Virus record (IMG/VR): IMGVR_UViG_2519899780_000005
DNA length: 47,693 nucleotides
Source of the DNA: a virus
Taxonomy: Duplodnaviria; Heunggongvirae; Uroviricota; Caudoviricetes
Reading direction: 5' to 3' (one strand)
In this document: piece by piece, positions 25,320-46,272 of the stretch
How positions within the stretch are numbered: position 1 is the first letter of the stretch
Layout of the letters: each line of letters begins with the position of its first letter
Notes under the pieces: model-generated
Databases searched by the model: none
Told to the model about the DNA's origin: nothing
Seen by the model: only the letters and a program-made list of their open reading frames with translations
Program-made: the position numbers and the translations under genes

Positions 25320-25345
25320 GAAAACAACCCATTATCAAATACAAG

Positions 25346-26484: not shown

Positions 26485-26577
26485 GTGTCCTCCCAAAAAG
26501 TTGGTAGTCAGAACATACCATGCTAAGCGAGGTGAAAGCACCTTTATCAAGCCCCCCGCAGATAGACTTTGTAATGG

Positions 26578-26865
26578 CTACTTCTTCAGAAATGATTCGA
26601 TGAACTCACGCCGGGGATGACGATAGTTCAGAATATCTTCTGGCATCCTCATAAAGCGGTTGTTGCCGTCTTTGGCAGTAACGAAACAGCAGTGAACTCC
26701 GCAGACATCCGTTTTGATCGTGTCGCCATACTCAAAAAGCAACTGCGCCATCTTCTCTTGCCATTCTTGCGGCATAGCCTCCATGAATACTCTCGGCATC
26801 ACGCAGAACGACGCATGCGTCAGGCCAAACCACAATTGCAGGTCTTTACGATATTCTTCATCCAT
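26578..26865 (-). CDS. Hypothetical protein (95 aa)
   Basis: Complete ORF between spanin genes and cos; modest RBS; no family recognised. Confidence 0.45.
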   Translation of the reverse strand: MDEEYRKDLQLWFGLTHASFCVMPRVFMEAMPQEWQEKMAQLLFEYGDTIKTDVCGVHCCFVTAKDGNNRFMRMPEDILNYRHPRREFIESFLKK

Positions 26866-27083
26866 CGTCTTTACCTTTGTTGCAATAAAAAGCCCCGCGA
26901 ATGCGAGGCTAAATCCTGGTGTTTGTGATGACTGGCTCTTATCTCAACGCAGCCCCTTACCGCGCGCAAGATGCTCAATATCAAGCATCAGCAATGAGAT
27001 GTTAAATCTGGATTCACTCCAGAAGTGATCACCACCCTGTCTACAGAGCCAGATGTGAAGGATGATGAGTAAAATTATCGCTA

Positions 27084-27551
27084 TCATCGAAGGCATTGCG
27101 TCCTGATGTATTCCTGAAGCGTTCTCAGTGCTGTTTGGTCGCGGATAATTCCGTCCCGGATACCGAGAACGTTTCGTCCAGCAACTGGAGAGAGTTCGAC
27201 GGTGGCATCATTGCCCATGCCGGAGGCGCTGGAGGTTTCGGCTGAGGATGGCACAGGGCATTTTCCTTTGACGAGCACCCTGCCACCATTATCAAGCTTG
27301 CGACGAAGAGCATCATTTTCAGCTTTCGCATCAGCTAACTCCTTCGTGTATTTTGCATCGAGCGCAGCAACATCACGCTGACGCATCTGCATGTCAGTAA
27401 TTGCCGCGTTCGCCAGCTTCAGTTCTCTGACATTTTTGTCGCGCTGGGCTTTGTAGGTAATGGCGTTATCACGGTAATGATTCAGCCCCAGACTAAGCAC
27501 ACCACAGGCTACCAGCAGGACAATAATCACCACACACAGAACACGGTTCAT
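27084..27551 (-). CDS. Rz: Inner-membrane spanin Rz (start at MNRVLCVV)
   Basis: N-terminal TM segment then coiled-coil (…[47 protein letters not shown]…); contains the embedded Rz1 frame. Confidence 0.85.
27125..27331 (-). CDS. Rz1: Outer-membrane lipoprotein spanin Rz1 (embedded in the +1 frame of Rz)
   Basis: Lipoprotein signal LIMVAGC followed by Pro-rich mature region [11 protein letters not shown]. Confidence 0.8.
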
Positions 27552-27552
27552 A

Positions 27553-27639
27553 TCACCACCAACGGATTGTCCAGACCAGAACAGCAATGGCCACAATACG
27601 AATGGCAAATGCCATTGCCCGAATAAGTTCAGCACTCAT
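27553..27639 (-). CDS. Tiny hydrophobic ORF d (28 aa, [28 protein letters not shown])
   Basis: Single predicted TM helix; its stop overlaps the Rz start (tggtgatATG); homologous to the TM segment of ORF c. Confidence 0.3.
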
Positions 27640-27650
27640 CTTTTTAAAGT

Positions 27651-27773
27651 TCACGATTTCAGCGCAATGACCAGTTTTGCCAGCCCATACAGCATCGGAG
27701 ACACAGCAATACCAACAGCCACCCACTTAATAGCAAAAGCCAGCGCTCTGCTGATGTCATCAGTCACTGTCAC
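27651..27773 (-). CDS. Tiny hydrophobic ORF c (40 aa, GTG start, …ISRALAFAIKWVAVGIAVSPMLYGLAKLVIALKS)
   Basis: C-terminal part of track ORF 27651..27923; GTG start overlaps the stop of ORF b. Confidence 0.3.
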   Translation of the reverse strand: MTVTDDISRALAFAIKWVAVGIAVSPMLYGLAKLVIALKS

Positions 27774-27901
27774 CCCAGCAGCCCCGACGAAGACAACATC
27801 ACCCAGGCGAGGGACAGAAAAAGAGCAACCAGCATTAGTGAAAATGAAATACCGACAATCACACACAGGACCTTTGCCGGCGTTATGAGTTTGTCTGACA
27901 T
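27770..27901 (-). CDS. Tiny hydrophobic ORF b (43 aa, MSDKLITPAKVLCVIVGISFSLMLVALFLSLAWVMLSSSGLLG)
   Basis: ATG preceded by AAGGGG; below the 60-aa cutoff so absent from the ORF track; hand-translated. Confidence 0.3.
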   Translation of the reverse strand: MSDKLITPAKVLCVIVGISFSLMLVALFLSLAWVMLSSSGLLG

Positions 27902-27903
27902 AG

Positions 27904-27999
27904 CTACCCCTTAATTGCCACAATTAACTGGGATACTACCCATAAAAAAGGGATGCTCCAGACCAGCAAAAATTTCCAGTTTGGTAATTGACTAATCAT
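27904..27999 (-). CDS. Tiny hydrophobic ORF a (31 aa, MISQLPNWKFLLVWSIPFLWVVSQLIVAIKG)
   Basis: ATG preceded by GGGAG; the longer track ORF 27904..28116 would have to read through a terminator hairpin. Confidence 0.3.
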   Translation of the reverse strand: MISQLPNWKFLLVWSIPFLWVVSQLIVAIKG

Positions 28000-28065
28000 G
28001 AGTCGCAACTCCCTAATCAGTTTGCTAAAATCAATCAAGGCAGCCTCCCATAGCTTACTGCCATA

Positions 28066-28105
28066 AAAACAAAACCCCGCTTGCTGCCAACAAACGGGGT
28101 TTTTA
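28066..28105 (-). terminator. Rho-independent terminator immediately downstream of the endolysin gene
   Basis: Minus strand aaaaCCCCGTTTG-ttggcag-CAAGCGGGG-ttttgttttt: 9-bp stem, 7-nt loop, T-run. Confidence 0.6.
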
Positions 28106-28193
28106 CTTTTATTCACTTACATTTTGCCAGTTCGCAGGATTTCGTGTTATCCGTCCGCCTTGGCCAACGTCATTTATTAGCAAAATATTCTGC

Positions 28194-28727
28194 TTATCTG
28201 TCGATTCCCCAGCACGCCAGCGCGCTCTCCTGGTCACGACGGGATACCTGACCGTAACAGTTATTTGAGCGAATACGGCAGTCTCTGCCACCGTCCTTAA
28301 TCCACCAGCGAATCGCCTCACATGCTCCCCTGCGATCACCAGCATTAATTCGTCTGTAAAACGTCGACGGGAAACACTTACCGGGACCAATGTTGTACGG
28401 ACAGAATGACGCGATCCCCGCTTTCTGGGGTTCGGTCAATGGCACTCTGATGTTTTTCTCCACCCATGCCAGCGCCTTATCACGTTCGATGGCGTTAACC
28501 TGGTCGCATTTCTCCTTCGACAACTTCATGCCCGGGACGACAGGTTTACCATCCACCAGAATGGCACCGCGACAGATGGTCCAGATACCCGCGCCATCAC
28601 GGTATGCCGTGGTGTGGTTACCTTCCTTTTCATCCAGAAACTGGTCGAGAATGTCAGGCGCAGGCGCACCAGCGGCAATCAGCGCCAGAACGGCAGCCGA
28701 CAGGCCGTATTTGATTTTGGTGTTCAT
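28194..28727 (-). CDS. R: Endolysin R (lysozyme with N-terminal signal-anchor, SAR type)
   Basis: 177 aa; N-terminal hydrophobic segment; position in the lysis cassette. Confidence 0.9.
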   Translation of the reverse strand: MNTKIKYGLSAAVLALIAAGAPAPDILDQFLDEKEGNHTTAYRDGAGIWTICRGAILVDGKPVVPGMKLSKEKCDQVNAIERDKALAWVEKNIRVPLTEPQKAGIASFCPYNIGPGKCFPSTFYRRINAGDRRGACEAIRWWIKDGGRDCRIRSNNCYGQVSRRDQESALACWGIDR

Positions 28728-28769
28728 GGATATTTATCAGGATTTATCGGCAACAGATAACGAGCCAGC

Positions 28770-29576
28770 TTATATACGTCCTTTAAGATAAGTCAGTCCT
28801 GGATGAAACCAGTAAGCCGGCACTTTTTTAAAGGGCGGATTATCAAAATCACGAAGAAGAGCCTCCCGCACAACTGCATCCTTGTCCGCACCACTGGCCA
28901 GCGCTTCAATCTCAGCAGCTATCTGCAGATATCCCATGCAACGGCCAACGCGCTTCATCAGCCCCTGCTTTTTATTGTTCTTCAGGTAATCAATGGCAAA
29001 TTCAATGAGCGCCTCACTATGCTGGTGCGATGGCGGTGTTAATTTCCCATTTTCTGAGATGGTTATTTTCCCGCCATCTCCGTATACAACAAAGGATGGC
29101 CGGTTACACTCCCATTCCTGATCTTTATCAGGTGCAGACGCAATAAAATAACGTTTATTTCCTTCCTCTCCGGCACTTTTAACCGTAATGGAGTACTCAG
29201 ACTGCAGACAAGACGCCTCTTTTTCTGACCGCAGTGTTGACGGCGGCATCTTCAGAGAACCAGTAATTCTTCCCGGTAGCTTTCCTTTGTAGGTTATCAA
29301 CACATCCTGCGCCTCTAAAATTATGGGGCGCTTTTCCGGCAACGGTTCGTTCCCTTCACATAACCCGGCAGCAACATCCATGAAAAACTGCTTCGCCTGC
29401 TTTTTCGCCTCAGCTTCGTAAAACTCCAGCGTGGCACCTTCAGTACGGTCAAGACTAATCGCCACATCTGGCAACAACAGTGACGGATACCCACCAATTT
29501 CCAGTGCCACAGTAACAGTAATCTTATCCGGATAATTATTTATCCCTTTAACACCCAGTTCGTATTTTTTCTTCAT
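28770..29576 (-). CDS. Hypothetical 268-aa soluble protein inserted between holin and endolysin
   Basis: ATG 4 nt after the holin stop with GGGGGAG SD inside the holin 3' end; ends 42 nt before the endolysin start; no TM or signal peptide; no family recognised. Confidence 0.6.
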   Translation of the reverse strand: MKKKYELGVKGINNYPDKITVTVALEIGGYPSLLLPDVAISLDRTEGATLEFYEAEAKKQAKQFFMDVAAGLCEGNEPLPEKRPIILEAQDVLITYKGKLPGRITGSLKMPPSTLRSEKEASCLQSEYSITVKSAGEEGNKRYFIASAPDKDQEWECNRPSFVVYGDGGKITISENGKLTPPSHQHSEALIEFAIDYLKNNKKQGLMKRVGRCMGYLQIAAEIEALASGADKDAVVREALLRDFDNPPFKKVPAYWFHPGLTYLKGRI

Positions 29577-29580
29577 CGCT

Positions 29581-29796
29581 TTACTCCCCCCGCGCCGCCT
29601 TACGACGGTCCTCTCTGATTTTGAAATACAGGTTAGTCAGATATGTCAGCAGCCCAAACAGCAGACTCCCCAGCACGCCTATTGCCGCCCACTGAGACGG
29701 GGAAACCCTGTCCAGCAACTGCAGGAACCAGTAGCCCGTTCCCACCGCTGACGTGGTGTATGACACACCTGTTGTGATTTTTTCCATCTGGTACAT
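29581..29796 (-). CDS. S: Holin S (71 aa, dual-start motif MYQM)
   Basis: [29 protein letters not shown]… with two TM segments and charged C-terminus; recalled similarity to Stx-phage holins. Confidence 0.9.
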
Positions 29797-29946
29797 ACCC
29801 CGTCTCCCGTTATCCGGAAGCTGACAACAATAAAAAAAGCCACCAGTTAAGTACTGATGGCTCTGATAACTCATGCAGGCATCTCAGACGACCCACTGAC
29901 ACTACCGGTGAGTTTAACGATACCTTCCATTTGACTGGCTCACTTT

Positions 29947-31800
29947 TTATGATGATGCCGGTGCATTTATCTCCAGCACCAGACTTTCTATCTCAACGCC
30001 ATACGCTGCATTTTTGGTAATATCCGTCAGCGTCAGCGCATTCAGCCCCAGTGTCAGACTGTCTTTTATGACCTGGAATGCCGGGCCAGCCACTCCATTC
30101 AGTTTCGGAGTAACCGTGGCACTGCCGGCGGTGAACACCAGCTCCAGCGTCTGCCAGTCGTTACTGTAATTCCCGAACTCGCCCAACTTTGTGTTTCCTG
30201 CTTTCTTGTGATGCATCAGATTCAGTTTGCCGTCTGTGGTCTGGGTGAAGAACGACATCAGGAACGGGTTACCAGTCCCGGTCATCGCCACGACGTCAGG
30301 TAACGCTACATCGGTATACAGATAAATTCCCAGACCGAACTGATTGTTGGTCAGTGCGCCTGACAGTCGAAACTTACAGCTCAGTCTGCCACCCCGTGTC
30401 AGCAGGGAGACTGCGTCATCCACCGGGCGCGTCAGGGACCAGGCTTTATTGCTCTGCTTGGCGATCTTAAATACACCACCCGACAACTGAATTCCGCCGT
30501 CCTTAATGGTCCAGCCCTGCGCAGCAGCCTCTCCGGCTGTCGGCAGCAGGGAGATTGTGCGAACGGACGTATCTGCAGACGGACCCGATGGCGTGTCGCC
30601 GCCGGGCGAGGGTTTGATTTCCGGTGCCTTACCACTGATGAAGGCTGAGGTGCGCCCGGCTACGTTCAGAATAGCAGTTGCCATACGATCGGGAATAATG
30701 CCACGACGCGCCCATGAGCTGAAATGCGTCGGGCGATTTGATGATACCCAGTTTTTGTTCGTTCGGGATGCCGAACCGTAATAACCAGACCCGGCAATAT
30801 CAGGATCTTCTGACGGGTTGTTTGTCGGTGTATTAACTCCGCTACCATCGGTCATAAAGGGAACAAAATAAATCTGCTGGGATTCTTTACCTTTATATGC
30901 ACCATATACCACTTCATATTGCGTACCGTGTTCTTGTTTCCACGCGTATGTCGTGTCGCCACAAATCCAGGGGACTGATGCCGGACTTCCACCGTGACAC
31001 TGCGCTGCCAGCCCGGCAAGGTCAGCACGGAACTGCTGTACCATTGCAAGAAATGCTGCTGGCTGCTGGGCGTAACTGGCATTCGTCATATCGAATTCCC
31101 CCTGCATCCAGCATATCGCCAGCAAAACGTTTTTCGGGTTTTTCTGCAATGCTGCCTTCGTGCGGAAAAGCAGATCCTGATATAACGGCTTACCCACTCC
31201 CCAGCGAGCCGAATCCTGACTGGCCCCCGTGGACTCGCTGAATGTCCCCTCCGTGCCCTGGGTGAATGCCGAACCACCACGACAGCATGGTACCAGCAGG
31301 ATCCCCGCATTATTAGGGATATACGGAAGCAGTTTTTTGGCAATATGTAAGCCCTGGCCGACACAGCCGTACTGCCCTTTGCTCAGGTCAGCCCGGGGAT
31401 GGTTAATCGTACTCATATCCTGAACATCATGCAGACAATGGTCAGCAGGAATGATGTCGTTAAATACGCATACTTCACCACCGGGAGTCACTGTGTTACG
31501 ACGGGCCAGTTGCTTAATGCGCGGATGGGGCGCATCGTATGAATCCGGAAGCGGAAGCCCTTCACCGTAAGCCATGGCATTGGACTGCCCGGCCAGTACG
31601 ATGACGTAGTACCACTCCGGCTCAGTTGCACCACTGACGACCACATCACCTTCTGCTGCAATCGCCTGCATCAGGGTATAAGGGGTTATGGCCACCGGAC
31701 TACCAAACGGCTGCCAGCCCTCTTTCAGTTTATGTGTCAGCTTTTCCGCAAGATCTGACGGCGACGCCGCCCTGACAACATCATAGTGTTTAAATGCCAT
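29947..31800 (-). CDS. nanS-p: NanS-p-like sialate O-acetylesterase (SGNH/SASA hydrolase with DUF1737-like N-terminus); ORF-track start is 31815
   Basis: GQSNAMAYGEG catalytic motif; ~620 aa; position immediately upstream of the holin as in Stx-converting phages. Confidence 0.8.
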   Translation of the reverse strand: MAFKHYDVVRAASPSDLAEKLTHKLKEGWQPFGSPVAITPYTLMQAIAAEGDVVVSGATEPEWYYVIVLAGQSNAMAYGEGLPLPDSYDAPHPRIKQLARRNTVTPGGEVCVFNDIIPADHCLHDVQDMSTINHPRADLSKGQYGCVGQGLHIAKKLLPYIPNNAGILLVPCCRGGSAFTQGTEGTFSESTGASQDSARWGVGKPLYQDLLFRTKAALQKNPKNVLLAICWMQGEFDMTNASYAQQPAAFLAMVQQFRADLAGLAAQCHGGSPASVPWICGDTTYAWKQEHGTQYEVVYGAYKGKESQQIYFVPFMTDGSGVNTPTNNPSEDPDIAGSGYYGSASRTNKNWVSSNRPTHFSSWARRGIIPDRMATAILNVAGRTSAFISGKAPEIKPSPGGDTPSGPSADTSVRTISLLPTAGEAAAQGWTIKDGGIQLSGGVFKIAKQSNKAWSLTRPVDDAVSLLTRGGRLSCKFRLSGALTNNQFGLGIYLYTDVALPDVVAMTGTGNPFLMSFFTQTTDGKLNLMHHKKAGNTKLGEFGNYSNDWQTLELVFTAGSATVTPKLNGVAGPAFQVIKDSLTLGLNALTLTDITKNAAYGVEIESLVLEINAPASS

Positions 31801-31993
31801 GGTTCTTTCCACCATCTGAAAAATGATTCTTTAAAATACCTGACATGTAATACAGAAAAAACACAAAACCATACCTTAATTAAAAACCTCATCATCAAGC
31901 AGATATGCATGGATAAACTACAAGACGAGATATAAACCACCCTGCATTTAAATAAACAATAAACAACATCAGAAAAATAATTCTGCTCTATGG

Positions 31994-33307: not shown

Positions 33308-33384
33308 TGGCGCGCTGTACTGGATTCGAACCAGTGACCGATTGCTTAGAAGGCAATTGCTCTGTCCGGCTGAGCTAACAACGC
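33308..33384 (-). tRNA. tRNA-Arg (anticodon UCU)
   Basis: Cloverleaf folds by hand: acceptor GCGTTGT/ACAGCGC, anticodon loop CUUCUAA, T-arm GGTTCGAATCC, 3' CCA; probably argO or argN of Stx-phage nomenclature. Confidence 0.85.
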
Positions 33385-33397
33385 ATGATGCAGATAA

Positions 33398-33474
33398 TGG
33401 ACCGCCATCGGGGACTTGAACCCCGCGCAGCCAGCTTCGAAGGCTGGCGCTCTATCCCGATGAGCTAATGGCGG
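33398..33474 (-). tRNA. tRNA-Arg (anticodon UCG)
   Basis: Anticodon stem CCAGC/GCTGG with loop CUUCGAA, T-arm GGTTCAAGTCC, 3' CCA. Confidence 0.8.
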
Positions 33475-33481
33475 TATGTGA

Positions 33482-33557
33482 TGGTGGCCCTTGCTGGATT
33501 TGAACCAGCGACCTGGCGATTATGAGTCGCTCGCTCTCACCACTGAGCTAAAGGGCC
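33482..33557 (-). tRNA. ileZ: tRNA-Ile2 / Met-like (anticodon CAU)
   Basis: GGCCCTTTAGCTCAGTGGT…ACTCATAATCG…GGTTCAAATCC…CCA; CAU anticodon in an Ile2-like body. Confidence 0.8.
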
Positions 33558-33606: not shown

Positions 33607-34656
33607 TCAAACGATTAAATCCTGAACTTCCCTGACTGTCTGCTCAAAACGTCCGGTCTCCAGTTCAACGCCAATCGCACGACGCCCGAGCGCCAGTGCA
33701 GCTTTTACCGTTGAACCTGAGCCCATAAAAAAATCTGCAACCAGGTCACCCGGACGACTGCTTGCGCTGATTATCTGCTGCAGCATTTCTGCCGGTTTTT
33801 CGCACGGATGTTTCCCGGGATAGAACTGCACCGGTTTATGTGTCCACACATCCGTGTACGGCACCTGCGCCGTCACACCAAAATACCGCCGCAGATGCTT
33901 ATATTCACTCTGCAGCTCCACATACTGCCGGTTCAGTGACGTATACGTATCCACCAGCTGGTGGTGGGGCTTTTCCAGTTCACCGCGCTGATGTTTCTCT
34001 TCTGCCACCCGGGCAAACAGCGACTGTAATTTCAGATAATCGCTTTCGTTCGGTAGCTGCCACTGACTGGCACTGAACCAGTGCGACACCATGTTTTTCT
34101 TTCCTGTGGCATCTGCAATCTGTTTTGCCGTTATCCCCAGGGCCGCGCGCGCATCACGAAAGTAAGAAATCAGCGGGGCCATCACATGCTGTTTCAGTGC
34201 ACTGCCCTTCGCCGCATACCCGGCATCTTTCGGACGATACGGCCCCTGATAATGTTCCGCGAACAGAATGCGCTCTGTGGCGGGGAAATACGCCCGCAGG
34301 CTTTCCTTGTTGCATCCGTTCCAGCGTCCGGACGGCTTCGCCCAGATAATATGGTTCAGCACACTGAAGCGTTCACGCATCATGATTTCGATATCAGATG
34401 CCAGGCGATGACCACAGAACAGGTAAAGACTTCCGACAGGTTTCAGCACCCGCCAGAACTGCGCCAGACACTGGTCCAGCCACTTCAGGTAATCATCGTC
34501 GCCCTTCCACTGGTTATCCCAGCCCTCAGGCTTCACTTTAAAGTACGGTGGGTCCGTGACTATCAGGTCAACAGAATTTTCGGGTAACGACCGGATAAAT
34601 TCCAGGCAGTCGGCGTTGATTAACTCACAACTGGATATTTTTACAGTATTAAGCAT
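33607..34656 (-). CDS. Orphan DNA methyltransferase (N6-adenine/N4-cytosine class, DPPY motif)
   Basis: …VDLIVTDPPYF… motif IV near the N-terminus; 349 aa; no adjacent restriction enzyme. Confidence 0.8.
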   Translation of the reverse strand: MLNTVKISSCELINADCLEFIRSLPENSVDLIVTDPPYFKVKPEGWDNQWKGDDDYLKWLDQCLAQFWRVLKPVGSLYLFCGHRLASDIEIMMRERFSVLNHIIWAKPSGRWNGCNKESLRAYFPATERILFAEHYQGPYRPKDAGYAAKGSALKQHVMAPLISYFRDARAALGITAKQIADATGKKNMVSHWFSASQWQLPNESDYLKLQSLFARVAEEKHQRGELEKPHHQLVDTYTSLNRQYVELQSEYKHLRRYFGVTAQVPYTDVWTHKPVQFYPGKHPCEKPAEMLQQIISASSRPGDLVADFFMGSGSTVKAALALGRRAIGVELETGRFEQTVREVQDLIV

Positions 34657-35230: not shown

Positions 35231-36052
35231 CTATCGCGTTACCCTCTTTAACTGCCGCTCCGCCCATGCCTCTTCAATGTCAAACCGAACCACCAACGTA
35301 TCGTAAAAGCGTTTCACTGATTTTTTCCACGTATCAAGCGTGATAGCACTCGTCACTTTGCATATGGCATTAAATGCCTCCGTTGATGGCAGCCTTTCAC
35401 AGCCACGACCACCACAACGCTGGCAATCTCTGATAACAGGCATACCACGTTTTACCGACTCTTCACGATGAATGGCGACACCACGCCCACGGCAATCCTT
35501 ACAGGCGGTGGAAACCTCACCCTTTCCGCCACACTCCGGACAGGCAACTTTTACCACCTCCCTGACTTTTTTCCATTCTTCCCAGTAAGACGGATACACG
35601 CCTTTTGTGCACTTTGCCCACACTGGTGGCTTACCATCCGGATACTGGATCTTGTTTGTAAAAACCTCGCTTTCAATAAATTTTTTTCCGTGACAGCAGG
35701 GGCACTGTTTTTTGCTCGCCGCGCTACGGGCATAATCTTCAAACGCATACGAAGCCATAATGCGCATCACTACCGGTTTTATTTCTGCCGGAAGTTTTCT
35801 CAACGCCGCCACACGATCGCACCGACTGAGTGCATAATCTGCCAGTAATTCTGTTGCCCGCGCCCTGTCATTCATACTGATGCCCATTTTCCCCAGGAAC
35901 GCAGAAAACCCCATCTCAGCCCGATTCTGTGTCATGCCCTGCGCGGCCATCACATCAGTGATACTCAGCGCATCTTTTGACGTTGAGGCCGATGCATCGG
36001 TCAGGCCAGGGGATTTTGGGGAGTAGTATTTCGGTAAATCTTCCAGTTTCAT
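35231..36052 (-). CDS. Q: Late-gene antiterminator Q
   Basis: 273 aa with several CxxC zinc-binding pairs (CPCCHGKK, CPECGGKG, CKDCRGRG, CQRCGGRG); upstream of tR' and the lysis genes. Confidence 0.8.
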   Translation of the reverse strand: MKLEDLPKYYSPKSPGLTDASASTSKDALSITDVMAAQGMTQNRAEMGFSAFLGKMGISMNDRARATELLADYALSRCDRVAALRKLPAEIKPVVMRIMASYAFEDYARSAASKKQCPCCHGKKFIESEVFTNKIQYPDGKPPVWAKCTKGVYPSYWEEWKKVREVVKVACPECGGKGEVSTACKDCRGRGVAIHREESVKRGMPVIRDCQRCGGRGCERLPSTEAFNAICKVTSAITLDTWKKSVKRFYDTLVVRFDIEEAWAERQLKRVTR

Positions 36053-36423
36053 TTTTTGACCTGCCCTTCAAGCATTATGGGGTAAATCTTCACGCCCAGC
36101 CGCCCCCCAGGAACGCGCTGACCGCGCACAATATTGATTTCATCAAACTGCTCGTCGTCTATGAGAAGTCCGGCATGCGTCAGCGCATCCAGTGGTGCTT
36201 TCAGAATATTGTCCAGGTCGCGACGACGCTTATCCGGTGGCTCTGCAATCACCTTTATCGCCAGCCTTCCGGACAGGCTTAATTTCAGCCGCTGCTGGCG
36301 AACAATAAGCGCCACAGCCCGGCGATAACGCTTTCCCTCCTCCGAGATAAAATATGTGCTGCCACGGCGTCGCCAGTAAGTGTTCACCGTCGGCGGGTAA
36401 GGTAAAACCAAATCTATGAGCAT
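36049..36423 (-). CDS. rusA: Holliday junction resolvase RusA
   Basis: …EPPDKRRRDLDNILKAPLDALTHAGLLIDD… matches the recalled RusA catalytic motif. Confidence 0.85.
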   Translation of the reverse strand: MLIDLVLPYPPTVNTYWRRRGSTYFISEEGKRYRRAVALIVRQQRLKLSLSGRLAIKVIAEPPDKRRRDLDNILKAPLDALTHAGLLIDDEQFDEINIVRGQRVPGGRLGVKIYPIMLEGQVKK

Positions 36424-36435
36424 CAGTCACCTCTT

Positions 36436-37482
36436 TTACCCAAGCACGCCAGTTGCAAAGGCGTGATCAAGAAAACGAAAAATTAAATCAACCTGAGAAC
36501 CATGCTTTTCTTCGAACGCCAGAGGATCCGCATGAAGCTCGTTGTGATGCTCCCGACACAGCGGTAGCGTGAAAATATCGTGAGATTTTGTCCCCATTCC
36601 GCCCTGACCATGACCAATCAGGTGATGGGGATCGTCGGCTGGCTTACCACAACACGCACACGGCTGTGTCTTCACCCAGCGTGTGTATTTCTCGTTAACC
36701 CAGCGGCGACGTTTAGGTCGTTTCATGAAAGATTCCGGAGACTCAGGATCAACGGCAATGCTGACCACCGTCTCTTCCTGTGGCGGGTTTTGCTGGTGGG
36801 CGTGAGGCAGCGGCGCAAGATTTTTTGTGCGCTGCTTCAGTATGCTGGTGGCGGTCTGCTCTCCCGGTACGATGTCGCTTTCACGGTACATTGAGCGGAT
36901 TTTTTCCGCACGCAACCCCAGCGAACGACGTAATACCGCTTCCGGTAGCGCGTCCGCCACCTGATTGCGGACCGCCCACCAGGATAATTCAGCCAGCGAT
37001 AATTCCCGTTCCTGCGAGCCATTCATTGCATGGCGTATGACGTCAATCATCCATGCAAACAGGTTTTGGTGAGCAAGTTGCCCGAGTGATTCGGAGGTCT
37101 GGTCGCGCAGCTGGTTGTCGCAGTGCCAGCACAACACCATTGCGCCGGTACCATAACGGTGAATGACGGTTTCACTGTGGTGATAATCGCCGTGTGGCCA
37201 CTGGCAGGATTTAACATGGCGCAGTAACCAGTCAGACAATGCGCCAGCGCCACCAGCAGCACGAATCACTCGTTCGTCGCTGAAAAATGGCAGTAATGAT
37301 TTATCCTCCGCCAGCGGCTGGCGAACGGCAGGAACGACCCCGGACGGCAGATTACGCATGCTTTTCGGTTCCGGCTCCACCAGTACCCGGGTATTGTGGA
37401 ATACCGGCATGGATTCACGGCCCGGCTTAACGATCACCAGCCCGAGTTCCGGTACCAGAACAGGTCGAAGTAATACCCGCAC
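36436..37482 (-). CDS. DUF968-like protein with C-terminal HNH-type zinc motif
   Basis: …CACCGKPADDPHHLIGHGQGGMGTKSHDIFTLPLCREHHNELH…. Confidence 0.6.
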   Translation of the reverse strand: MRVLLRPVLVPELGLVIVKPGRESMPVFHNTRVLVEPEPKSMRNLPSGVVPAVRQPLAEDKSLLPFFSDERVIRAAGGAGALSDWLLRHVKSCQWPHGDYHHSETVIHRYGTGAMVLCWHCDNQLRDQTSESLGQLAHQNLFAWMIDVIRHAMNGSQERELSLAELSWWAVRNQVADALPEAVLRRSLGLRAEKIRSMYRESDIVPGEQTATSILKQRTKNLAPLPHAHQQNPPQEETVVSIAVDPESPESFMKRPKRRRWVNEKYTRWVKTQPCACCGKPADDPHHLIGHGQGGMGTKSHDIFTLPLCREHHNELHADPLAFEEKHGSQVDLIFRFLDHAFATGVLG

Positions 37483-37483: not shown

Positions 37484-37756
37484 TTACCTCCAGATGCGTT
37501 GCTGGAATGTGCGGGACGGACGCGGTGGGCGTTCAGAGTAAGGAAGCCTGACGGAGATTATCCAGTGACGATAATCGAGGCTGAGGGCTTTCTTAATCTC
37601 GTATCCGCGTCTGCGGTAGTTATGAATTAGCCATTCGGCCTGTTCTTCAGTACATGGTGGGTGTTGGTACCAGTCGGTTTTAAATGCGTGTGAACGCCGC
37701 CCATGCCGGATGGCAAGGTCGGTATCAGAATTGTGAAATTTGGTTTTGTGCGCCAT
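37484..37756 (-). CDS. Hypothetical nin-region protein (90 aa)
   Basis: Complete ORF tightly packed with neighbours. Confidence 0.45.
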   Translation of the reverse strand: MAHKTKFHNSDTDLAIRHGRRSHAFKTDWYQHPPCTEEQAEWLIHNYRRRGYEIKKALSLDYRHWIISVRLPYSERPPRPSRTFQQRIWR

Positions 37757-37923
37757 CTGTTTTCTCTGCTGGCGCAGCAGGTGTCAGGTGTTCAGGCTGA
37801 CGTGCGAATTGTAAACCAGAATGCCAGAAAAAAACAAAACCCGCCGAACCGGGTTAAGTGCGGGTGCGTTGAGGATGCCTGACACATCAGAGGTGGCGAG
37901 GGATTTCTCCCCCGCCAGGTCTC

Positions 37924-38079
37924 TTACTCCTCAGGTTCGTAAGCTGTGAAGACAGCGACCTCCGTCTGGCCGGTTCGGAGTCGTACCTCGCAGAGGTCTT
38001 TCCTCGTTACCAGTGCCGTCACTATGACGGTTAAACAGATGACGATCAGGGCGATTAACATCGCCTTTTGCTGCTTCAT
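37924..38079 (-). CDS. hok: Hok/Gef family type I toxin (51 aa)
   Basis: MKQQKAMLIALIVICLTVIVTALVTRKDLCEVRLRTGQTEVAVFTAYEPEE matches the recalled Hok family sequence. Confidence 0.85.
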   Translation of the reverse strand: MKQQKAMLIALIVICLTVIVTALVTRKDLCEVRLRTGQTEVAVFTAYEPEE

Positions 38080-38316
38080 AGCCTGCTTCCCCTTGCCTTT
38101 CGGCACGTAAGAGGCTAACCTACATTTGTGAGACATAGATTGGGCCTCAGATTAATGTTAAGCGTCTTGCAGGACGCGAAATGTTAACTGGGGCTTTTCT
38201 CTATCTGCCTTTCAGTGTTCATGCCTGAGACAGATAGCCTCAAGCACCCGCAGCCATTCTACTTAACTCACGTCACCTCGCCAATATGAAATCAATCAGA
38301 AAGGTGATCCATAAAA

Positions 38317-39003
38317 TCACTCCTTCTCTTCTTTTCCGTAGTGGAGTTGGCCAATTTTGATAAGAGGGCGTCCCTGAGATTTGCGGTGTAGATTGGTATC
38401 GCGCAGAGAATACACACAGCCACAATATTCCTGCTGATAGAATTTTTCGCGCTTGCTGATTTCAATCATACGGGACGAGCCGCCCTGCTTGCGCCAGTTA
38501 TAATCCCAGTACACCATACCCGGATAATGCGCAACAGCTCGCCGCCCACACTCGTTAACCTGCTGCATATTTTTCCAGCGTGAAATGCCCAGTGAACTGC
38601 TGATCACACTGAAACCATTTTCAGCAGCGTACAACGCTGTCCGCTCAAAACGCATGTCAAAACACATGGTACAACGGATCCCCCTCTCAGGCTCCCATTC
38701 CATTCCTTTGGCACGTTCAAACCAGTTGTCGGTGTCGTAATCAGCATCGATAAACGGCACGCCGTGTTGTTCAGCAAAGCGAATATTTTCATCCTTACGA
38801 ATTAAATACTCTTTCTGAGGATGAATGTTCGGGTTGTAGAAAAAGATGGTGTAGTCGATTCCCGAGGCCTGAAGCGCCTCCATCACTTCACCGGAACATG
38901 GAGCACAGCAAGAGTGCAGTAGTAGTTTGTTTGCCCCGTTTGGGAGCTCCAATTTAGGCCGTTTGAAATCAGCAATAGTCATAAATATTTTTATTGGGGT
39001 CAT
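38317..39003 (-). CDS. QueH-like (DUF208) putative epoxyqueuosine reductase
   Basis: N-terminal [14 protein letters not shown] motif plus additional conserved Cys; identification from memory of the DUF208 signature. Confidence 0.5.
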
Positions 39004-39156
39004 GAAAATAGCACAGAGTGTAGCATCAGAGCAGGGCTATCGGGAATATATGTCTAAATCTGGTAATATCTGGTTTTGACGCAAAGCGGACAACCACGCT
39101 GGCTCTACCCTGCGCCATGAAAATGTCAATTCACATCTGAACTAATGCTCTTTAAT

Positions 39157-39582
39157 CTAGTAACGTCTAAAATACCTAACATTTCCTTGATAAAATGCCA
39201 GTACACGCTGCATAGCTTCGCTCTTCCGGCACTCGCGACAGATTATATTCAGGCGCCTGTCGTAGCGGCGTATTTCGCCGTCTGGTAACGACCAGATAAG
39301 GTCCGGATCAACCACTGCAGGTTTCTTCACCTTTGCCCTTGAGAGTTTTTTGCGAGCATTTTGCCAGTCCTTACGCGCCTGTTCAGACGGGAATAACCCG
39401 TAACCAGAGTTGTATACATCGCCACTGGCAACCAGTTCTCTGGCCAGAACGCTCATCAGATATCTTGTTGCCCCAGTTTTAGTTTCCAGTTGTCGTAACG
39501 TCTCGCGCCCACTCTGGCGTACGAGTTCAACAACCTGCCCTTTAATTTTCTCCCGCTCTTCTTGTGTAAAAACTTTTGCCAC
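39157..39582 (-). CDS. Hypothetical protein (141 aa, GTG start)
   Basis: AGGAGG 5 nt upstream of the GTG; basic C-terminus with CxxC. Confidence 0.5.
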   Translation of the reverse strand: MAKVFTQEEREKIKGQVVELVRQSGRETLRQLETKTGATRYLMSVLARELVASGDVYNSGYGLFPSEQARKDWQNARKKLSRAKVKKPAVVDPDLIWSLPDGEIRRYDRRLNIICRECRKSEAMQRVLAFYQGNVRYFRRY

Positions 39583-39622
39583 AAGCCCTCCTGAAAATTA
39601 CCTCATGACCAGAAATTAACAC

Positions 39623-40585
39623 TTACCCCCTGAAGCCCGGCGGAATTTCAGTGTCCGGTTCAGAAATGTGATTCACGCAACGCTGCGCAGGCGAACGCCC
39701 CAGGCGGATAACCAGTTCATCCCATTTTTCCCGGAGTTTTGCCGGACTCATGATGTTTTTTACCCAGAACGAATCCCGCTGGAGACGCCCAAACATTTCA
39801 CAAATTTGTCTGTGAGTTCTGCCATCCAGCATCCGCATTGTGCGAACGTCATTGGCCCATGCTGTCCAGTTGGGTTCTTTCGGTCTAGTGATCTCGCCAT
39901 CATCGCTGGCCGCCTGCTCGTAAAGACTCACGATTCGTCCCCAGATCCACTGTGCGCACACCAAATCTTCCTGACTTCCCCACTGGCGTTTTTTCGCACT
40001 GAACACAACCGCGTCAGGGTGTCGGGTTAAAAAATCCTGTTCAGCCGTCTGCGGGTCCGGTTGCGAAGCGTCCGGACAAGAAGATCTTTTATCTGACGGA
40101 TCAGGTTTTAATACTGACGGATCGGGGTCAATCATCGCCCCCCTAATCGGCAGTTTTTTATCAACAGTTGATCCATCAAAATTTGACGGGTCAACCGTTG
40201 AGGGGTCAATATTTGACGGGTCAACTGTTAACGGGTCATTTTTTGCCGGGCTAATTTTTCTTTTCGGTTTATATGACTCACGCGCCGCCGCCGCAGCTGC
40301 TTCGAGTTTTTCCACATTAAGCCGATAGATATTGCTTACATTACGCCCACCGACCTTACGCTCTTCCTTCGTCAGCCAGCCCTCTTTCGCCAGTTCTGCA
40401 ATAGCCGATTTCACTGTGGATTCACTTCTTGCACCGATCTGACGCCGGATAGTTTCAATGGCAGGCCATGACACGCCCTCGTCATTGCTGTAGTCTGCAA
40501 GACGGGCCATAACCGCCACCCTGGATAAGATCATGCCGGTGAAGGCGCACCCTTCCCAGACAAGACCATGAAGCTTGCTGCTCAT
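39623..40585 (-). CDS. Replication initiation protein (O-like, N-terminal HTH) containing the origin iterons
   Basis: Position after the Cro/YdaT-like genes; DPS-repeat peptide encoded by DNA iterons; GGGGG SD before the ATG. Confidence 0.65.
   Translation of the reverse strand: MSSKLHGLVWEGCAFTGMILSRVAVMARLADYSNDEGVSWPAIETIRRQIGARSESTVKSAIAELAKEGWLTKEERKVGGRNVSNIYRLNVEKLEAAAAAARESYKPKRKISPAKNDPLTVDPSNIDPSTVDPSNFDGSTVDKKLPIRGAMIDPDPSVLKPDPSDKRSSCPDASQPDPQTAEQDFLTRHPDAVVFSAKKRQWGSQEDLVCAQWIWGRIVSLYEQAASDDGEITRPKEPNWTAWANDVRTMRMLDGRTHRQICEMFGRLQRDSFWVKNIMSPAKLREKWDELVIRLGRSPAQRCVNHISEPDTEIPPGFRG
40168..40270. repeat. Origin-like iterons (ttgacgggtcaa-type, 4-5 copies, ~14-bp period) plus adjacent AT-rich tract inside the O-like gene
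   Basis: ttgacgggtcaa twice, ttgaggggtcaa, ttaacgggtcat, then cattttttgccgggctaattttt. Confidence 0.6.
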
Positions 40586-40607
40586 AAAACCCCCGAACAC
40601 CGTGCTT

Positions 40608-41033
40608 TTAGTGCATCACCACAGCATTCCCTGCCGGGCCGCCGCGATTCATCTGGTCATACAAAACAACCGCTGACGCAACAAAATCATCGACATCCTT
40701 CACCAGCCGATCCCTCCGTTCGACGATCTCACGATAATATTCAGAACTGTGGCTGCGCATACGGGCCACCAGCAAAGGCGGCATCGCCTTTTCGATCGCC
40801 GGTAACAGAGCCTGCATTTTTTCAACAGCATCAGGGGTGTCTTTCTCTACCCAGCGGAAAATTTTCTGGGTATTGCGAGCCAGGGCTTCCGGATGGCTGT
40901 CGTCATACAGTTCTGGGAACGTCATACCCAACTCAAAATAAGCCTGGGTTATTCCAGCTGCTGGAACTTTTTCGCCATCAGGACGCGCCCAGGCATTCAT
41001 CGCCATGCGGATGTGTTCATGCTTGATTTTCAT
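40608..41033 (-). CDS. YdaT-like protein
   Basis: 141 aa starting MKIKHEHI…; start overlaps the stop of the upstream Cro-like gene (ATGA). Confidence 0.55.
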   Translation of the reverse strand: MKIKHEHIRMAMNAWARPDGEKVPAAGITQAYFELGMTFPELYDDSHPEALARNTQKIFRWVEKDTPDAVEKMQALLPAIEKAMPPLLVARMRSHSSEYYREIVERRDRLVKDVDDFVASAVVLYDQMNRGGPAGNAVVMH

Positions 41034-41284
41034 GAATCAACTCCCATCAGCTTTTTCGTAGTAGTTTTATTCCTGCCAATAGTTAAAATTGCATCGGCAG
41101 AAAATAATCCGTTTGATGCAAGAGCGATTTTTTCAGCGTAATTTGTTTCGCCGGTATATTCTGTGCGAGGCAATTTTCCGTTATCCATCCATTTATAGAT
41201 TGCTCTTTGGCTGACACCACAAACGTCGGCCACAACAGCAACGCGAACAGTTTTGATTACATCTTCAAGTGTTTTCTGGTTCAT
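41030..41284 (-). CDS. Cro/YdaS-like HTH regulator (84 aa, start MNQKTLED)
   Basis: HTH-like segment …VADVCGVSQRAIYKWMDNGKLP…; divergent from the repressor gene. Confidence 0.65.
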   Translation of the reverse strand: MNQKTLEDVIKTVRVAVVADVCGVSQRAIYKWMDNGKLPRTEYTGETNYAEKIALASNGLFSADAILTIGRNKTTTKKLMGVDS

Positions 41285-41363
41285 ATCACCCTCACAATGT
41301 GAACTTTGAGTACATGCTATAACAGAACTGACAGTACATTCAAGAGCGAATATCATTGAACTT
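41285..41363. promoter_or_regulatory. Divergent promoter/operator region of the immunity switch
   Basis: 80-bp intergenic region with repeated TTGA-GTACAT … GTACAT-TCAA elements. Confidence 0.4.
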
Positions 41364-41783
41364 ATGGTTCATGAAGATAAAGCGCGTAAAGAGTTCGCCA
41401 GTAGGCTTGCGCTAGCCTGTGAAAACGCTGGTTATGAACAACATGGAAGGCAGGCAGAAATTGCCCGTCGAATGAAATTAACACCAAAAGCGGTTAGCAA
41501 ATGGTTTAATGGCGAAACAATTCCTCGCCGGGAGAAATTAAGGGAATTAGCAACACTAATAGGAACAACACCAACCTATCTTTTGGGAGAGGATACAGAA
41601 GAAAGTGGACAGGTACGTTTCTATCAGGAGTTAAATCCAAGACAAAAAATCATCATTGACCTTCTGGACGAGCTCCCTGACAGTGAGACAGATGAACTTT
41701 TAAAAACTCTTGAAGAGAAAAAACAGAAGTACAATGCAATTTACGAAGAGTTAGCACGAAAGAAAAAACAAAAAGCCTCTTAA
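41364..41783 (+). CDS. Prophage repressor (XRE-family HTH), in the DicA position
   Basis: …QAEIARRMKLTPKAVSKWFNGETIPRREKLRELATLIG… HTH; heads the ydfA-dicF-dicB-like operon. Confidence 0.75.
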   Translation: MVHEDKARKEFASRLALACENAGYEQHGRQAEIARRMKLTPKAVSKWFNGETIPRREKLRELATLIGTTPTYLLGEDTEESGQVRFYQELNPRQKIIIDLLDELPDSETDELLKTLEEKKQKYNAIYEELARKKKQKAS

Positions 41784-43800: not shown

Positions 43801-46272
43801 ATGAGTAAAGTCTTTATTTGCGCCGCCATTCCGGACGAACAGGCAATAAAGGAAGAAGGTGCCGTCGCTGTAGCCACTGCCATTGAAGCCGGTGATGAAC
43901 GTCGCGCCCGCGCAAAATTTCACTGGCAATTCCTGGAGCATTATCCGGCTGCTCAGGACTGCGCTTATAAATTTCTTGTCTGCGAGGATAAACCCGGTAT
44001 ACCCCGCCCTGCCCTCGATTCCTGGGATGCTGAATATATGCAGGAAAACCGCTGGGATGAGGAGTCTGCTTCCTTTGTCCCGGTTGAGACTGAATCCGAT
44101 CCGATGAACGTCACTTTTGACAAGCTGGCCCCTGAAGTACAGAACGCTGTCATGGTTAAGTTCGACACATGTGAAAACATCACCGTTGATATGGTTATTA
44201 GCGCACAGGAATTGTTGCAGGAAGACATGGCAACATTCGACGGACATATCGTTGAAGCGTTGATGAAAATGCCAGAAGTTAACGCCATGTATCCGGAGCT
44301 TAAGCTGCATGCCATCGGGTGGGTTAAGCATAAATGTAAGCCTGGTGCCAAATGGCCCGAAATTCAGGCAGAGATGCGCATCTGGAAAAAACGTCGCGAA
44401 GGTGAACGCAAGGAAACCGGAAAATACACGTCTGTTGTTGATCTCGCCCGCGCCAGAACCAATCAACAGCACAGTGAAAATTCAACAGGAAAAATCAGCC
44501 CGGTCATTGCTGCCATTCATCGCGAATACAAGCAGACATGGAAAACACTGGATGACGAACTGGCCTACGCTCTCTGGCCTGGTGATGTGGATGCCGGAAA
44601 CATTGACGGCAGCATCCATCGCTGGGCAAAAAATGAAGTTATCGACAACGACCGCGAAGACTGGAAGCGTATCTCGGCATCAATGCGCAAACAGCCTGAT
44701 GCCCTTCGCTACGACCGCCAGACTATTTTTGGCCTTGTCCGTGAACGTCCGATCGACATTCACAAAGACCCTGTGGCACTGAACAAATACATTACTGAAT
44801 ACCTGACTACAAAGGGCGTGTTTGAAGATGAAGGAAGAAATCAGAGCGCAACTGATACTCTCTCGTCGCCAGTACCAGAAACTGATGCAGTGGAAACGGC
44901 AATTCCGGGCAACGAAAAAACCGAATGCAAAGTGGAAGTCGAACCATCTGTAGAGCGTGAGGGGCCGTTCTACTTCCTCTTCACCGACAAGGATGGCGAA
45001 AAATACGGTCGCGCAAACAAACTTTCTGGTCTGGAAAAAGCACTAGCCTTGGGAGCTACGGAAATCACAAAAGAGGAATACTTCGCACGTAAAAACGGCA
45101 CGTACTCAGGTTCACAACAAAATACTGGTGCATCTGACACGACCGCACAACCAGAGCCGGTAAAAGTTACCGCTGACGAAGTAAACAAAATTATGCAGGC
45201 AGCCAATATCAGCCAGCCTGACGCCGATAAGTTGCTTGCTGCCTCTCGCGGAGAATTTGTTGCAGGGATTAGCGACCCGAATGATCCGAAATGGGTAAAG
45301 GGGATTGAAACCCGCGATTCTGTAAACCAGAACCAGCAAGAATCGGAACAGAACGACCAGAAAGCGGAACAAAACAGCCCAAATACGCAACAAAACGAGC
45401 CAGAAACAAAACAACCTGAGCCAGTAGCGCAACAGGAACCGGAAAAAGTCTGCACCGCCTGCGGTCAAAGCGGTGGCGGCAACTGCCCTGATTGTGGCGC
45501 GGTGATGGGTGACGCAACATACCAGGAAACATTCGATGAAGAGAATCAGGTTGAAGTTCAGGAAAATGATCCGAAGGAAATGGAAGGCGCTGAACATCCA
45601 CACAAGGAGAATGCTGGTAGCGCTCAGGATCACGCCAGCGATAGTGAAACTGGCGAGACGGCAGATCCCTTAATTACGATGAACGGTCATCACGTTATCA
45701 CATCCACCAGCAGGACGTGTGACCATCTAATGATCGACCTTGAAACCATGGGAAAAAATCCTGATGCCCCGATTATCTCAATAGGTGCAATATTTTTCGA
45801 TCCGCAAACCGGAGATATGGGACCGGAATTTAGTAAGACTATCGATCTGGAAACTGCTGGCGGAGTCATTGATCGTGACGTCATTAAAAGGTGGCTTAAG
45901 CAATCACGCGAAGCGCAATCTGCCATTATGACCGATGAAATCCCGTTAGATGATGCACTGTTACAATTGCGGGAATTTATCGATGAAAACTCCGGTGAAT
46001 TTTTTGTTCAGGTTTGGGGAAATGGAGCCAACTTCGACAACACGATTTTGCGCCGTTCATACGAACGGCAGGGGATCCCCTGCCCGTGGCGTTACTACAA
46101 CGATCGCGATGTACGCACAATCGTTGAGCTGGGGAAAGCCATAGACTTCGATGCCAGAACGGCTATTCCATTCGAAGGTGAGCGCCATAATGCACTTGAT
46201 GACGCCCGTTACCAGGCAAAATACGTTTCAGTTATCTGGCAAAAACTGATCCCGAGTCAGGCTGATTTTTAA
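43801..46272 (+). CDS. Large exonuclease with C-terminal DnaQ-like DEDDh 3'-5' domain and internal zinc ribbon
   Basis: C-terminus DLETMG…(W)GNGANFD…HNALDDA (DEDDh motifs); CTACGQSGGGNCPDCG zinc ribbon; acidic Q/E-rich linker; N-terminal ~550 aa of unknown fold. Confidence 0.75.
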   Translation: MSKVFICAAIPDEQAIKEEGAVAVATAIEAGDERRARAKFHWQFLEHYPAAQDCAYKFLVCEDKPGIPRPALDSWDAEYMQENRWDEESASFVPVETESDPMNVTFDKLAPEVQNAVMVKFDTCENITVDMVISAQELLQEDMATFDGHIVEALMKMPEVNAMYPELKLHAIGWVKHKCKPGAKWPEIQAEMRIWKKRREGERKETGKYTSVVDLARARTNQQHSENSTGKISPVIAAIHREYKQTWKTLDDELAYALWPGDVDAGNIDGSIHRWAKNEVIDNDREDWKRISASMRKQPDALRYDRQTIFGLVRERPIDIHKDPVALNKYITEYLTTKGVFEDEGRNQSATDTLSSPVPETDAVETAIPGNEKTECKVEVEPSVEREGPFYFLFTDKDGEKYGRANKLSGLEKALALGATEITKEEYFARKNGTYSGSQQNTGASDTTAQPEPVKVTADEVNKIMQAANISQPDADKLLAASRGEFVAGISDPNDPKWVKGIETRDSVNQNQQESEQNDQKAEQNSPNTQQNEPETKQPEPVAQQEPEKVCTACGQSGGGNCPDCGAVMGDATYQETFDEENQVEVQENDPKEMEGAEHPHKENAGSAQDHASDSETGETADPLITMNGHHVITSTSRTCDHLMIDLETMGKNPDAPIISIGAIFFDPQTGDMGPEFSKTIDLETAGGVIDRDVIKRWLKQSREAQSAIMTDEIPLDDALLQLREFIDENSGEFFVQVWGNGANFDNTILRRSYERQGIPCPWRYYNDRDVRTIVELGKAIDFDARTAIPFEGERHNALDDARYQAKYVSVIWQKLIPSQADF

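Follow-up and report, generated by a model that had tools for sequence, protein, structure and literature searches.

Lambdoid prophages of Escherichia coli carry a predicted cobalamin-independent epoxyqueuosine reductase, QueH, in a nin-like region

The full queuosine (Q) pathway of Escherichia coli is established (PMC5372724). QueA forms epoxyqueuosine (oQ) at position 34 of tRNA-Asp, -Asn, -His, and -Tyr, and oQ is then reduced to Q by QueG or by QueH (PMC5372724, PMC9508795), the latter being a substitute for the former that is not orthologous to it (PMC5372724). QueG (b4166), which belongs to the E. coli core genome, uses cobalamin and [4Fe-4S] and is counted among the cobamide-dependent enzymes of this species (PMC5175355, PMC11841063); the first of these sources cites Frey et al. 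1988 for the cobamide dependence of oQ reduction in E. coli. QueH carries out the same step but belongs to a family of unrelated fold, and has no need of the cobalamin (vitamin B12) that QueG requires (PMC5175355, PMC11841063). The subject of this report is a queH homologue in IMG/VR virus record IMGVR_UViG_2519899780_000005, a stretch of 47,693 nucleotides (hereafter the window) that constitutes a complete lambda-like (lambdoid) prophage of E. coli. We consider it probable that this gene encodes a functional QueH, that it is cargo derived from a host chromosome and likely lets lysogens finish Q when B12 is scarce, and that it probably has a weak promoter of its own. The prophage enzyme would thus act on the same step, and in the same cells, as QueG. 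The QueH family, its chemistry, and the RefSeq name of this protein are already known, so that the advance is one of biological context rather than of new mechanism: a Q-specific tRNA-modification enzyme carried by temperate phages, and present alongside QueG in about 18% of E. coli, including laboratory strains other than K-12, appears to be undescribed.

The open reading frame (ORF) listing of the window places the mechanically called frame at 38317..39003 on the minus strand, with 228 residues. An earlier interpretation made from the letters alone (the sequence-only reading) had given exactly these coordinates and had correctly identified the HSCCAPC motif; the strand is added here. The elements of the locus are as follows.

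38317..38982, minus strand: queH coding sequence, 221 residues plus stop codon, predicted homologue of the cobalamin-independent tRNA epoxyqueuosine(34) reductase
38983..39003, minus strand: in-frame 21-nucleotide (nt) stretch that lengthens the mechanical ORF at its upstream end and is probably 5' untranslated region, not coding
39017..39031, minus strand: candidate queH promoter, the invariant block CTCTGATGCTACACT, which has, some 35 nt upstream of the ATG, an extended -10-like element (TG-C-TACACT)
38298..38327, minus strand: weak candidate terminator from a minimum free energy fold, a hairpin across the queH stop codon with a U-rich stretch after it

By every in silico feature the protein is a true member of the QueH family, which was reportedly described by Zallot and colleagues in 2017. 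The Pfam hidden Markov model (HMM) PF02677 (QueH/DUF208) matches it at full length (profile positions 1–174 of 175) with an E-value of 1.1e-65 and 221.5 bits against a cutoff of 23.5; Pfam returns QueH alone, and no QueG-type domain was found. A phmmer search of the PDB matched solely Thermotoga maritima QueH, at an E-value of 8e-22 (7lc5, 9dco, and 9d86, all ~1e-21). No NCBIfam model matches the protein, which leaves it without equivalog-level support, and for this reason the Pfam, PDB, and fold evidence is relied on here. A search of a representative set of 1.84 billion proteins returned 4774 relatives at E <= 0.001, and conservation was assessed in an alignment of the query with 61 diverse full-length homologues. 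Of the family positions with conservation of 90% or more in this alignment, all 24 are kept in the window protein.

The kept positions include the seven that align with metal ligands, namely C32, C33, C36, C111, C114, C194, and C196 in the numbering of the 228-residue ORF (C25, C26, C29, C104, C107, C187, and C189 in that of the 221-residue protein). They fall in the CCAPC-bearing stretch at residues 27–39 of the longer ORF, in RCTMC at residues 110–114, and in YCGC at residues 193–196, so that the further conserved cysteines mentioned in the sequence-only reading are indeed present. The ligand positions align to C, C, D13, C, C, C, and C of T. maritima QueH, and each is at least 90% conserved among the 61 homologues. 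The third ligand is Asp13 in the T. maritima enzyme and Cys here, CCAPC being the family norm (57 of 61). In T. maritima QueH these ligands (CCxxC/D, RCxxC, and CGC) are said, in work by Li and colleagues from 2021, to hold a [4Fe-4S] cluster and an adjacent iron, and the PDB includes the T. maritima mutants C9S and D13N. Other family-invariant residues are also retained, among them N57, N59, E65, Y66, R69, W94, E106, R110, R118, and K144, and the invariant columns of a second homologue alignment agree with the retained residues.

The predicted fold points the same way. An AlphaFold2 model built from a 31-sequence alignment had a mean predicted local distance difference test score of 95.5 and a predicted template modelling (TM) score of 0.91. 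The top five Foldseek matches in the PDB were all T. maritima QueH (E 1e-14 to 1e-12, target-normalized TM score 0.90–0.92, root mean square deviation 1.2–2.0 Å), with the best TM score, 0.92, to 7lc5; matches at this score had a deviation of 1.2–1.3 Å. The next matches, which comprised TtuA, TilS, GMP synthase, and other proteins of the adenine-nucleotide-alpha-hydrolase fold, had E-values of about 1e-4 or weaker; T. maritima QueH thus leads the other proteins of that fold by ten orders of magnitude, and the comparison gives no support to placement in an unrelated Cys-rich family. The central proposal of the sequence-only reading, a prophage-borne QueH/DUF208 homologue, is therefore borne out by both HMM and structure. 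In its full-length HMM match, fold, seven ligand positions, and other conserved residues the window protein is like T. maritima QueH (7LC5, 7LC7, 9DEU), and it differs from the described family in that its gene resides on a lambdoid prophage or temperate phage whose host already has QueG. From the conserved residues and the modelled fold we infer that the encoded QueH is a functional enzyme of the [4Fe-4S]-plus-iron, cobalamin-independent type.

The true start of queH is most likely the second ATG, at 38982, which gives a protein of 221 residues, and not the ATG at 39003. Five alleles were compared, those of the window, phage HannyBb, E. coli B, strain GF47, and isolate OZ040192. Among them the seven codons separating the two ATGs vary non-conservatively (MTPIKIF, MNLINTF, ITPT*TF), and the GF47 allele has an in-frame stop in this interval; downstream of the ATG at 38982 the frame is open in all five alleles and can be aligned to homologues from other genera. 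The Prokaryotic Genome Annotation Pipeline (PGAP) also starts the identical protein, WP_000150294.1 (named QueH), at 38982. Because of the GF47 stop, the unconserved seven-codon peptide, and the PGAP start, the gene is taken as 38317..38982, and the 228-residue version was rejected on account of that stop and the freely varying peptide.

A shorter version starting at Met41, found in PHROG 3217 and in many database entries, was likewise rejected, since codons 8–40 are under coding constraint: compared with GF47, the most distant allele, they show 7–9 synonymous changes against one non-synonymous change. This synonymous excess indicates that codons 8–40 are coding and that the short versions are gene-calling artefacts. 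Both PHROG 3217 ('unknown function', 188 positions) and numerous database proteins represent QueH read from the internal Met41, which starts at 38883 (window 38317-38882), and a Shine-Dalgarno-like GGTGAAG stands before the Met41 codon. Starting at Met41 deletes the CCAPC metal-binding motif, and the function has in this way been hidden in phage annotation. The present assignment mends that annotation gap, PHROG 3217 having been modelled on N-terminally truncated gene calls that lack CCAPC.

Within E. coli, queH is widespread. Megablast found it in 994 of 5426 complete genomes (18%), covering at least 80% of the gene in 984 of the carriers; 1013 of the 1016 places are chromosomal, no genome has more than two copies, and RefSeq labels every match listed 'epoxyqueuosine reductase QueH'. 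The sequence-only reading had called a phage-borne QueH unusual, and with this frequency and a RefSeq name already in place that description does not hold within E. coli. As queG occurs in 5425 of the 5426 genomes, every queH carrier has both enzymes. Carriers among the matches listed include E. coli B REL606, E. coli B, E. coli C, ATCC 8739, and ATCC 11303; BL21(DE3) is not among the matches listed and was not confirmed as a carrier. At the corresponding place in the Qin locus of K-12 MG1655 there is relBE-ydfV-flxA and no queH, and more generally the gene is present or absent among otherwise syntenic prophages, 4432 of the 5426 genomes being without it.

The condition of some carrier prophages is informative. 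In REL606, which we take to be the ancestor of the long-term evolution experiment, the Qin-like prophage (NC_012967 1611063-1630363) is decayed, with a frameshifted integrase, a truncated DUF968 gene, and an IS3 insertion, and queH is intact, which speaks for an advantage to the host. E. coli C, ATCC 8739, and ATCC 11303 likewise combine a decayed Qin-like prophage with an intact queH.

Among 50,697 deposited phage records, one isolated phage has a close copy, Escherichia phage HannyBb (93.6% nucleotide identity), with the same gene order: O-like, DUF977 ('Ren-like'), queH, hok, DUF968, Q. In IMG/VR there are 190 close relatives, of which the best 80 are all intact and all 100% identical in protein. 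Searching IMG/VR with the family alignment brought the total to just 215 of 2.9 million viral contigs, so that phage-borne QueH is essentially one clade. A survey of viruses for 7-deazaguanine genes reported no QueA, QueG, or QueH homologues among those it analysed (PMC6884629, Hutinet et al. 2019). Two further sets of records were noted. Those labelled 'Acinetobacter phage MD-2021a' (328–379 kb) have a QueH of 78% identity annotated 'putative prophage protein', and, given their size, are more likely bacterial or mis-binned sequence than a phage genome. Eighteen short faecal contigs labelled 'Bacteriophage sp.' have QueH of 32–52% identity, and their viral origin is similarly doubtful.

The prophage alleles are under strong purifying selection. 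Among the five alleles the ratio of non-synonymous to synonymous substitution rates (dN/dS, Nei-Gojobori) is 0.017–0.074, with dS up to 0.46, and the N-terminal CCAPC segment is constrained equally to the rest of the gene. The DUF977 gene of the same genomes has a dN/dS of 0.08–0.18 and is about twofold more relaxed. These values bear on the possibility that queH is a functionless passenger, a recently hitch-hiked host gene that is neutral or decaying. Such a passenger might be expected to be missing, as queH is, from 82% of E. coli genomes and from K-12 Qin, and to be always redundant with queG; it would hardly maintain a dN/dS of 0.02–0.07 over dS of that magnitude, stay at least 80% complete in 984 of 994 genomes and intact in the best 80 of 190 IMG/VR copies, and recur on several differing prophage backbones. 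We regard this explanation as very unlikely. Nor is there any sign of neofunctionalisation in the substitution pattern: dN between the prophage protein and the QueH of Providencia or Photorhabdus is 0.13–0.17, and that between Providencia and Photorhabdus is 0.14, and since dN is no higher than between housekeeping genes there is no acceleration of the kind that would suggest a changed function.

The likely source of such a gene is a bacterial chromosome. The view that enterobacteria normally use QueG, put forward in the sequence-only reading, is right for the E. coli core genome but fails beyond it, where queH is chromosomal in many Enterobacterales. It occurs on the chromosomes of Providencia, Photorhabdus, Serratia, Erwinia, Enterobacter, Kluyvera, and Scandinavium, and QueH is common on chromosomes of Enterobacterales and other Proteobacteria generally, at 75–92% identity to the prophage protein; for the chromosomal QueH of other Enterobacterales the range is 80–92%. 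The closest relatives outside Escherichia, from Scandinavium (92%), Kluyvera (91%), and Enterobacter (88–90%), are chromosomal and non-phage and sit among metabolic and regulatory genes at a site that differs in each genome. Providencia queH (84% identity) adjoins tmcA, purC, bamC, and dapA, and that of Photorhabdus is also in a non-phage region; of 80 species representatives, E. albertii alone has queH in the same prophage context. The identity ranking tracks host taxonomy, from Enterobacteriaceae to Pectobacteriaceae/Erwiniaceae and then Morganellaceae/Yersiniaceae, and from this ranking we infer that the gene was captured from the chromosome of a member of the Enterobacteriaceae. A recent origin from one of the sampled donors was rejected, because dS to Providencia and Photorhabdus is saturated and the nearest relatives lie at differing sites, so that no donor locus can be named.

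Two observations on the chromosomal copies may be added. In Enterobacter sp. ECC-175 (270-8420), queH is 89% identical and lies just downstream of mnmA-rluE-icd, with no phage genes within 5 kb. We take icd to be a classical attachment site of lambdoid phages and e14 in E. coli, and its proximity suggests a possible route of phage capture. Across Scandinavium, Kluyvera, and three Enterobacter genomes, queH stands in five differing chromosomal neighbourhoods, and the gene seems to be accessory and mobile within the Enterobacteriaceae rather than a fixed core gene.

Within the prophages the position of queH is constant. It occurs on at least four immunity/replication backbones (LexA-like repressor with a DnaC-like gene; DicA/DicC; RacR/YdaS/YdaT/YdaU/YdaV; AlpA-type), each time directly after DUF977, the 'Ren-like exclusion protein' gene of HannyBb, which is directly upstream in all eight loci examined. 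The host-derived gene would have become fixed at a single site, with DUF977 before it and hokD after it, within the nin-like region of Qin/Rac-like lambdoid prophages that form a mosaic family in E. coli and E. albertii. In these respects queH resembles phage morons and lysogenic-conversion cargo, in that it is host-derived, dispensable for phage growth, placed between conserved phage modules, and present or absent among syntenic prophages. Presumably lom and bor of lambda are examples of such genes. It differs from typical morons in that its promoter and terminator are candidates and that its product is an enzyme of tRNA modification and neither a surface nor a virulence factor. We treat it as a cargo-like unit because a TGnTACACT block travels with the gene across differing flanks and because K-12 Qin is without the gene.

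This block makes a dedicated queH promoter plausible. The extended -10-like element has its TG at 39024-39025 and its hexamer at 39017-39022. The 14-nt sequence CTCTGATGCTACAC (39018-39031) is identical in the five alleles, including that of GF47, in which the sequence farther upstream is unrelated; TGATGCTACAC is kept in 78 of 80 IMG/VR loci and the remaining two keep TGCTACACT. By a rough estimate, the chance of 14 consecutive neutral sites remaining unchanged at a synonymous divergence of about 0.3–0.46 is below 1%. Downstream, the candidate terminator hairpin is missing from the alternative flank of HannyBb and E. coli B. Another promoter-like match, 38284->38256 on the minus strand, is probably that of the hok mRNA itself. 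An Rfam search over 37500-39700 at E up to 1 returned sok alone, and neither a preQ1 nor a cobalamin riboswitch.

A second source of queH transcript is likely on induction. The gene is on the same strand as, and downstream of, the cro, cII-like, O-like, and DUF977 genes, and as no terminator-like site is predicted between these early rightward genes and queH, it should be transcribed when the prophage is induced. This arrangement admits an alternative in which the same enzyme benefits the phage: queH would be silent in the lysogen and expressed solely once induction or infection has started the early rightward (pR-type) transcript, and a higher Q/oQ ratio would then make translation of late proteins efficient or pre-empt a host response. 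In keeping with this, queH occurs in a viable isolated phage, HannyBb, and infection of Shewanella was found to induce queG and to shift oQ to Q (bioRxiv 10.64898/2026.03.05.709803, a 2026 preprint). Such a role does not account for the intact queH, under strong purifying selection, in defective prophages such as that of REL606, nor for the conserved promoter-like block directly upstream of the gene, and the codon usage of the prophage at NAY codons indicates no special demand. We consider a benefit to the phage alone rather unlikely.

A benefit to the lysogen fits these observations better in our view. The queH product would reduce oQ to Q at position 34 of the four tRNAs. On induction the gene could be expressed from the early rightward transcript, and its own weak extended -10 promoter would probably be active in the lysogen. 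To our knowledge E. coli makes no cobalamin de novo. Since QueG needs cobalamin, the most likely benefit would be that lysogens complete Q synthesis without it when B12 is scarce. On this reading, the enzyme would be active in vivo and expressed in the lysogen, and B12 independence would be the selected advantage.

Several observations weigh against this explanation. The gene is dispensable and is carried by only 18% of genomes. A scan for consensus -35/-10 promoters did not call the proposed promoter, whose -35 is poor; there is no recognisable Shine-Dalgarno sequence before the ATG at 38982; and the terminator hairpin is not significant against shuffled sequences (z = -1.6) and is at best weak. 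In 36 prophage genes the NAU fraction is 0.58 for His, 0.49 for Asn, 0.62 for Asp, and 0.58 for Tyr, with no notable difference between late and early genes, and this NAU/NAC usage presumably resembles ordinary E. coli averages. A phage demand for Q-decoded codons was considered and rejected, there being no signal of one in that usage. In decoding, oQ34 and Q34 have no established functional difference, and the benefit, if any, could be small or large. A literature search found no paper on phage or prophage QueH, nor on the expression or activity of this gene.

A wider version of the proposal, which we hold tentatively and at somewhat less than even probability, is that prophage queH uncouples Q completion from B12, so that lysogens have Q34 and non-lysogens oQ34, and that the resulting phage-determined polymorphism of the epitranscriptome is a selected lysogenic-conversion trait. 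If true, this would concern B12-free or B12-limited settings such as minimal media and competitive gut niches, and would be the first Q-specific tRNA-modification enzyme documented on phage. Should the enzyme prove active, whether tRNA-Asp, -Asn, -His, and -Tyr of E. coli carry oQ or Q would depend on prophage content together with B12 supply. B-lineage and K-12 strains may then differ in oQ/Q status in B12-free media, and comparisons of tRNA modification or translation between the two in minimal medium may be affected. An active enzyme would also offer a simple genetic system for asking what separates oQ from Q in decoding, and would add tRNA maturation to the functions brought by lysogenic conversion.

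The genes around queH bear on what else the enzyme might do. Its placement in the nin region, proposed in the sequence-only reading, is correct, as it lies between the O-like and DUF977 genes on one side and RusA and Q on the other, in the counterpart of the nin region of lambda. The other features of the window, with strand where assigned, are listed here from the integrase end.

46563->: integrase
43801-46272: large exonuclease
41364-41783, plus strand: repressor
41030-41356, minus strand: cro-like gene
40608-41033: YdaT/cII-like gene
39623-40600, minus strand: O-like replication/HTH protein (Pfam HTH_36; HannyBb homologue annotated 'replication initiation O-like protein'), proximal boundary of the nin-like region
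39157-39582, minus strand: DUF977 gene (Pfam PF06163, 3.1e-28)
37924-38249, minus strand: hokD/mok toxin ORF and sok antisense (type I toxin-antitoxin), directly 3' of queH; PGAP names hokD at the syntenic locus
37484-37756: 90-residue ORF
36436-37482: DUF968 gene
36049-36423: RusA
35231-36052, minus strand: antiterminator Q (Pfam PF03589, 2e-49), distal boundary of the nin-like region
33607-34656, minus strand: N6/N4 DNA methylase, after Q
33308-33557, minus strand: tRNA cluster Met-CAT, Arg-TCG, and Arg-TCT, between the DNA methylase and the lysis genes
24771-31815: SASA esterase, holin, lysozyme, Rz, and Nu1
~9.4-24.8 kb: lambda-like head and tail genes, function assumed from position
5908-9387: J
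5241-5840, minus strand: Lom (Lom/Ail)
1919-5089: tail fibre
1335-1919: tail-fibre assembly
612-1280, plus strand: methyltransferase dependent on S-adenosylmethionine (SAM)

One role suggested by phage biology is that QueH serves modification of phage nucleic acid, for example by 7-deazaguanine in phage DNA, and not host tRNA. Phages do use Q-pathway enzymes for DNA modification (PMC6884629), and a DNA methylase and a SAM-dependent methyltransferase are found elsewhere in this prophage. The 7-deazaguanine DNA modification clusters (DpdA with preQ0/G+ genes; Hutinet et al. 2019) belong to the same queuosine/7-deazaguanine metabolic neighbourhood as QueH, but their defining genes were absent from the 31 window ORFs covered by the Pfam scan (the head and tail genes at ~9.4-24.8 kb lay outside it): no TGT/DpdA, FolE, QueC, QueD, QueE, or QueF domain was present. 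The survey of deazaguanine phages is also without QueA, QueG, and QueH (PMC6884629), and the sequence has not diverged from that of housekeeping tRNA QueH. The phage DNA modification pathway entertained in the sequence-only reading thus finds no support, having neither TGT/DpdA nor a preQ0-synthesis gene in that scan, and such a role seems extremely improbable. A role in a defence system was also rejected, as PADLOC gave no match for QueH or five neighbours.

The tRNA cluster lies about 4.8 kb from queH, and none of its members has a GUN anticodon; in agreement with the sequence-only reading, the phage tRNAs are not queuosine substrates. The Met-CAT tRNA is named tRNA-Ile by PGAP in a syntenic prophage and is probably of the lysidine Ile2 type. 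On the other side of Q, the sok match adjoining queH is clear (Rfam RF01794, 38074-38249, E = 2.3e-28, 120 bits). The prophage has other cargo-like genes besides queH, namely the SAM-dependent methyltransferase beside the tail-fibre assembly gene, Lom/Ail, the SASA protein upstream of holin (sialate O-acetylesterase-like, 29947-31815, minus strand), and the N6/N4 DNA methylase.

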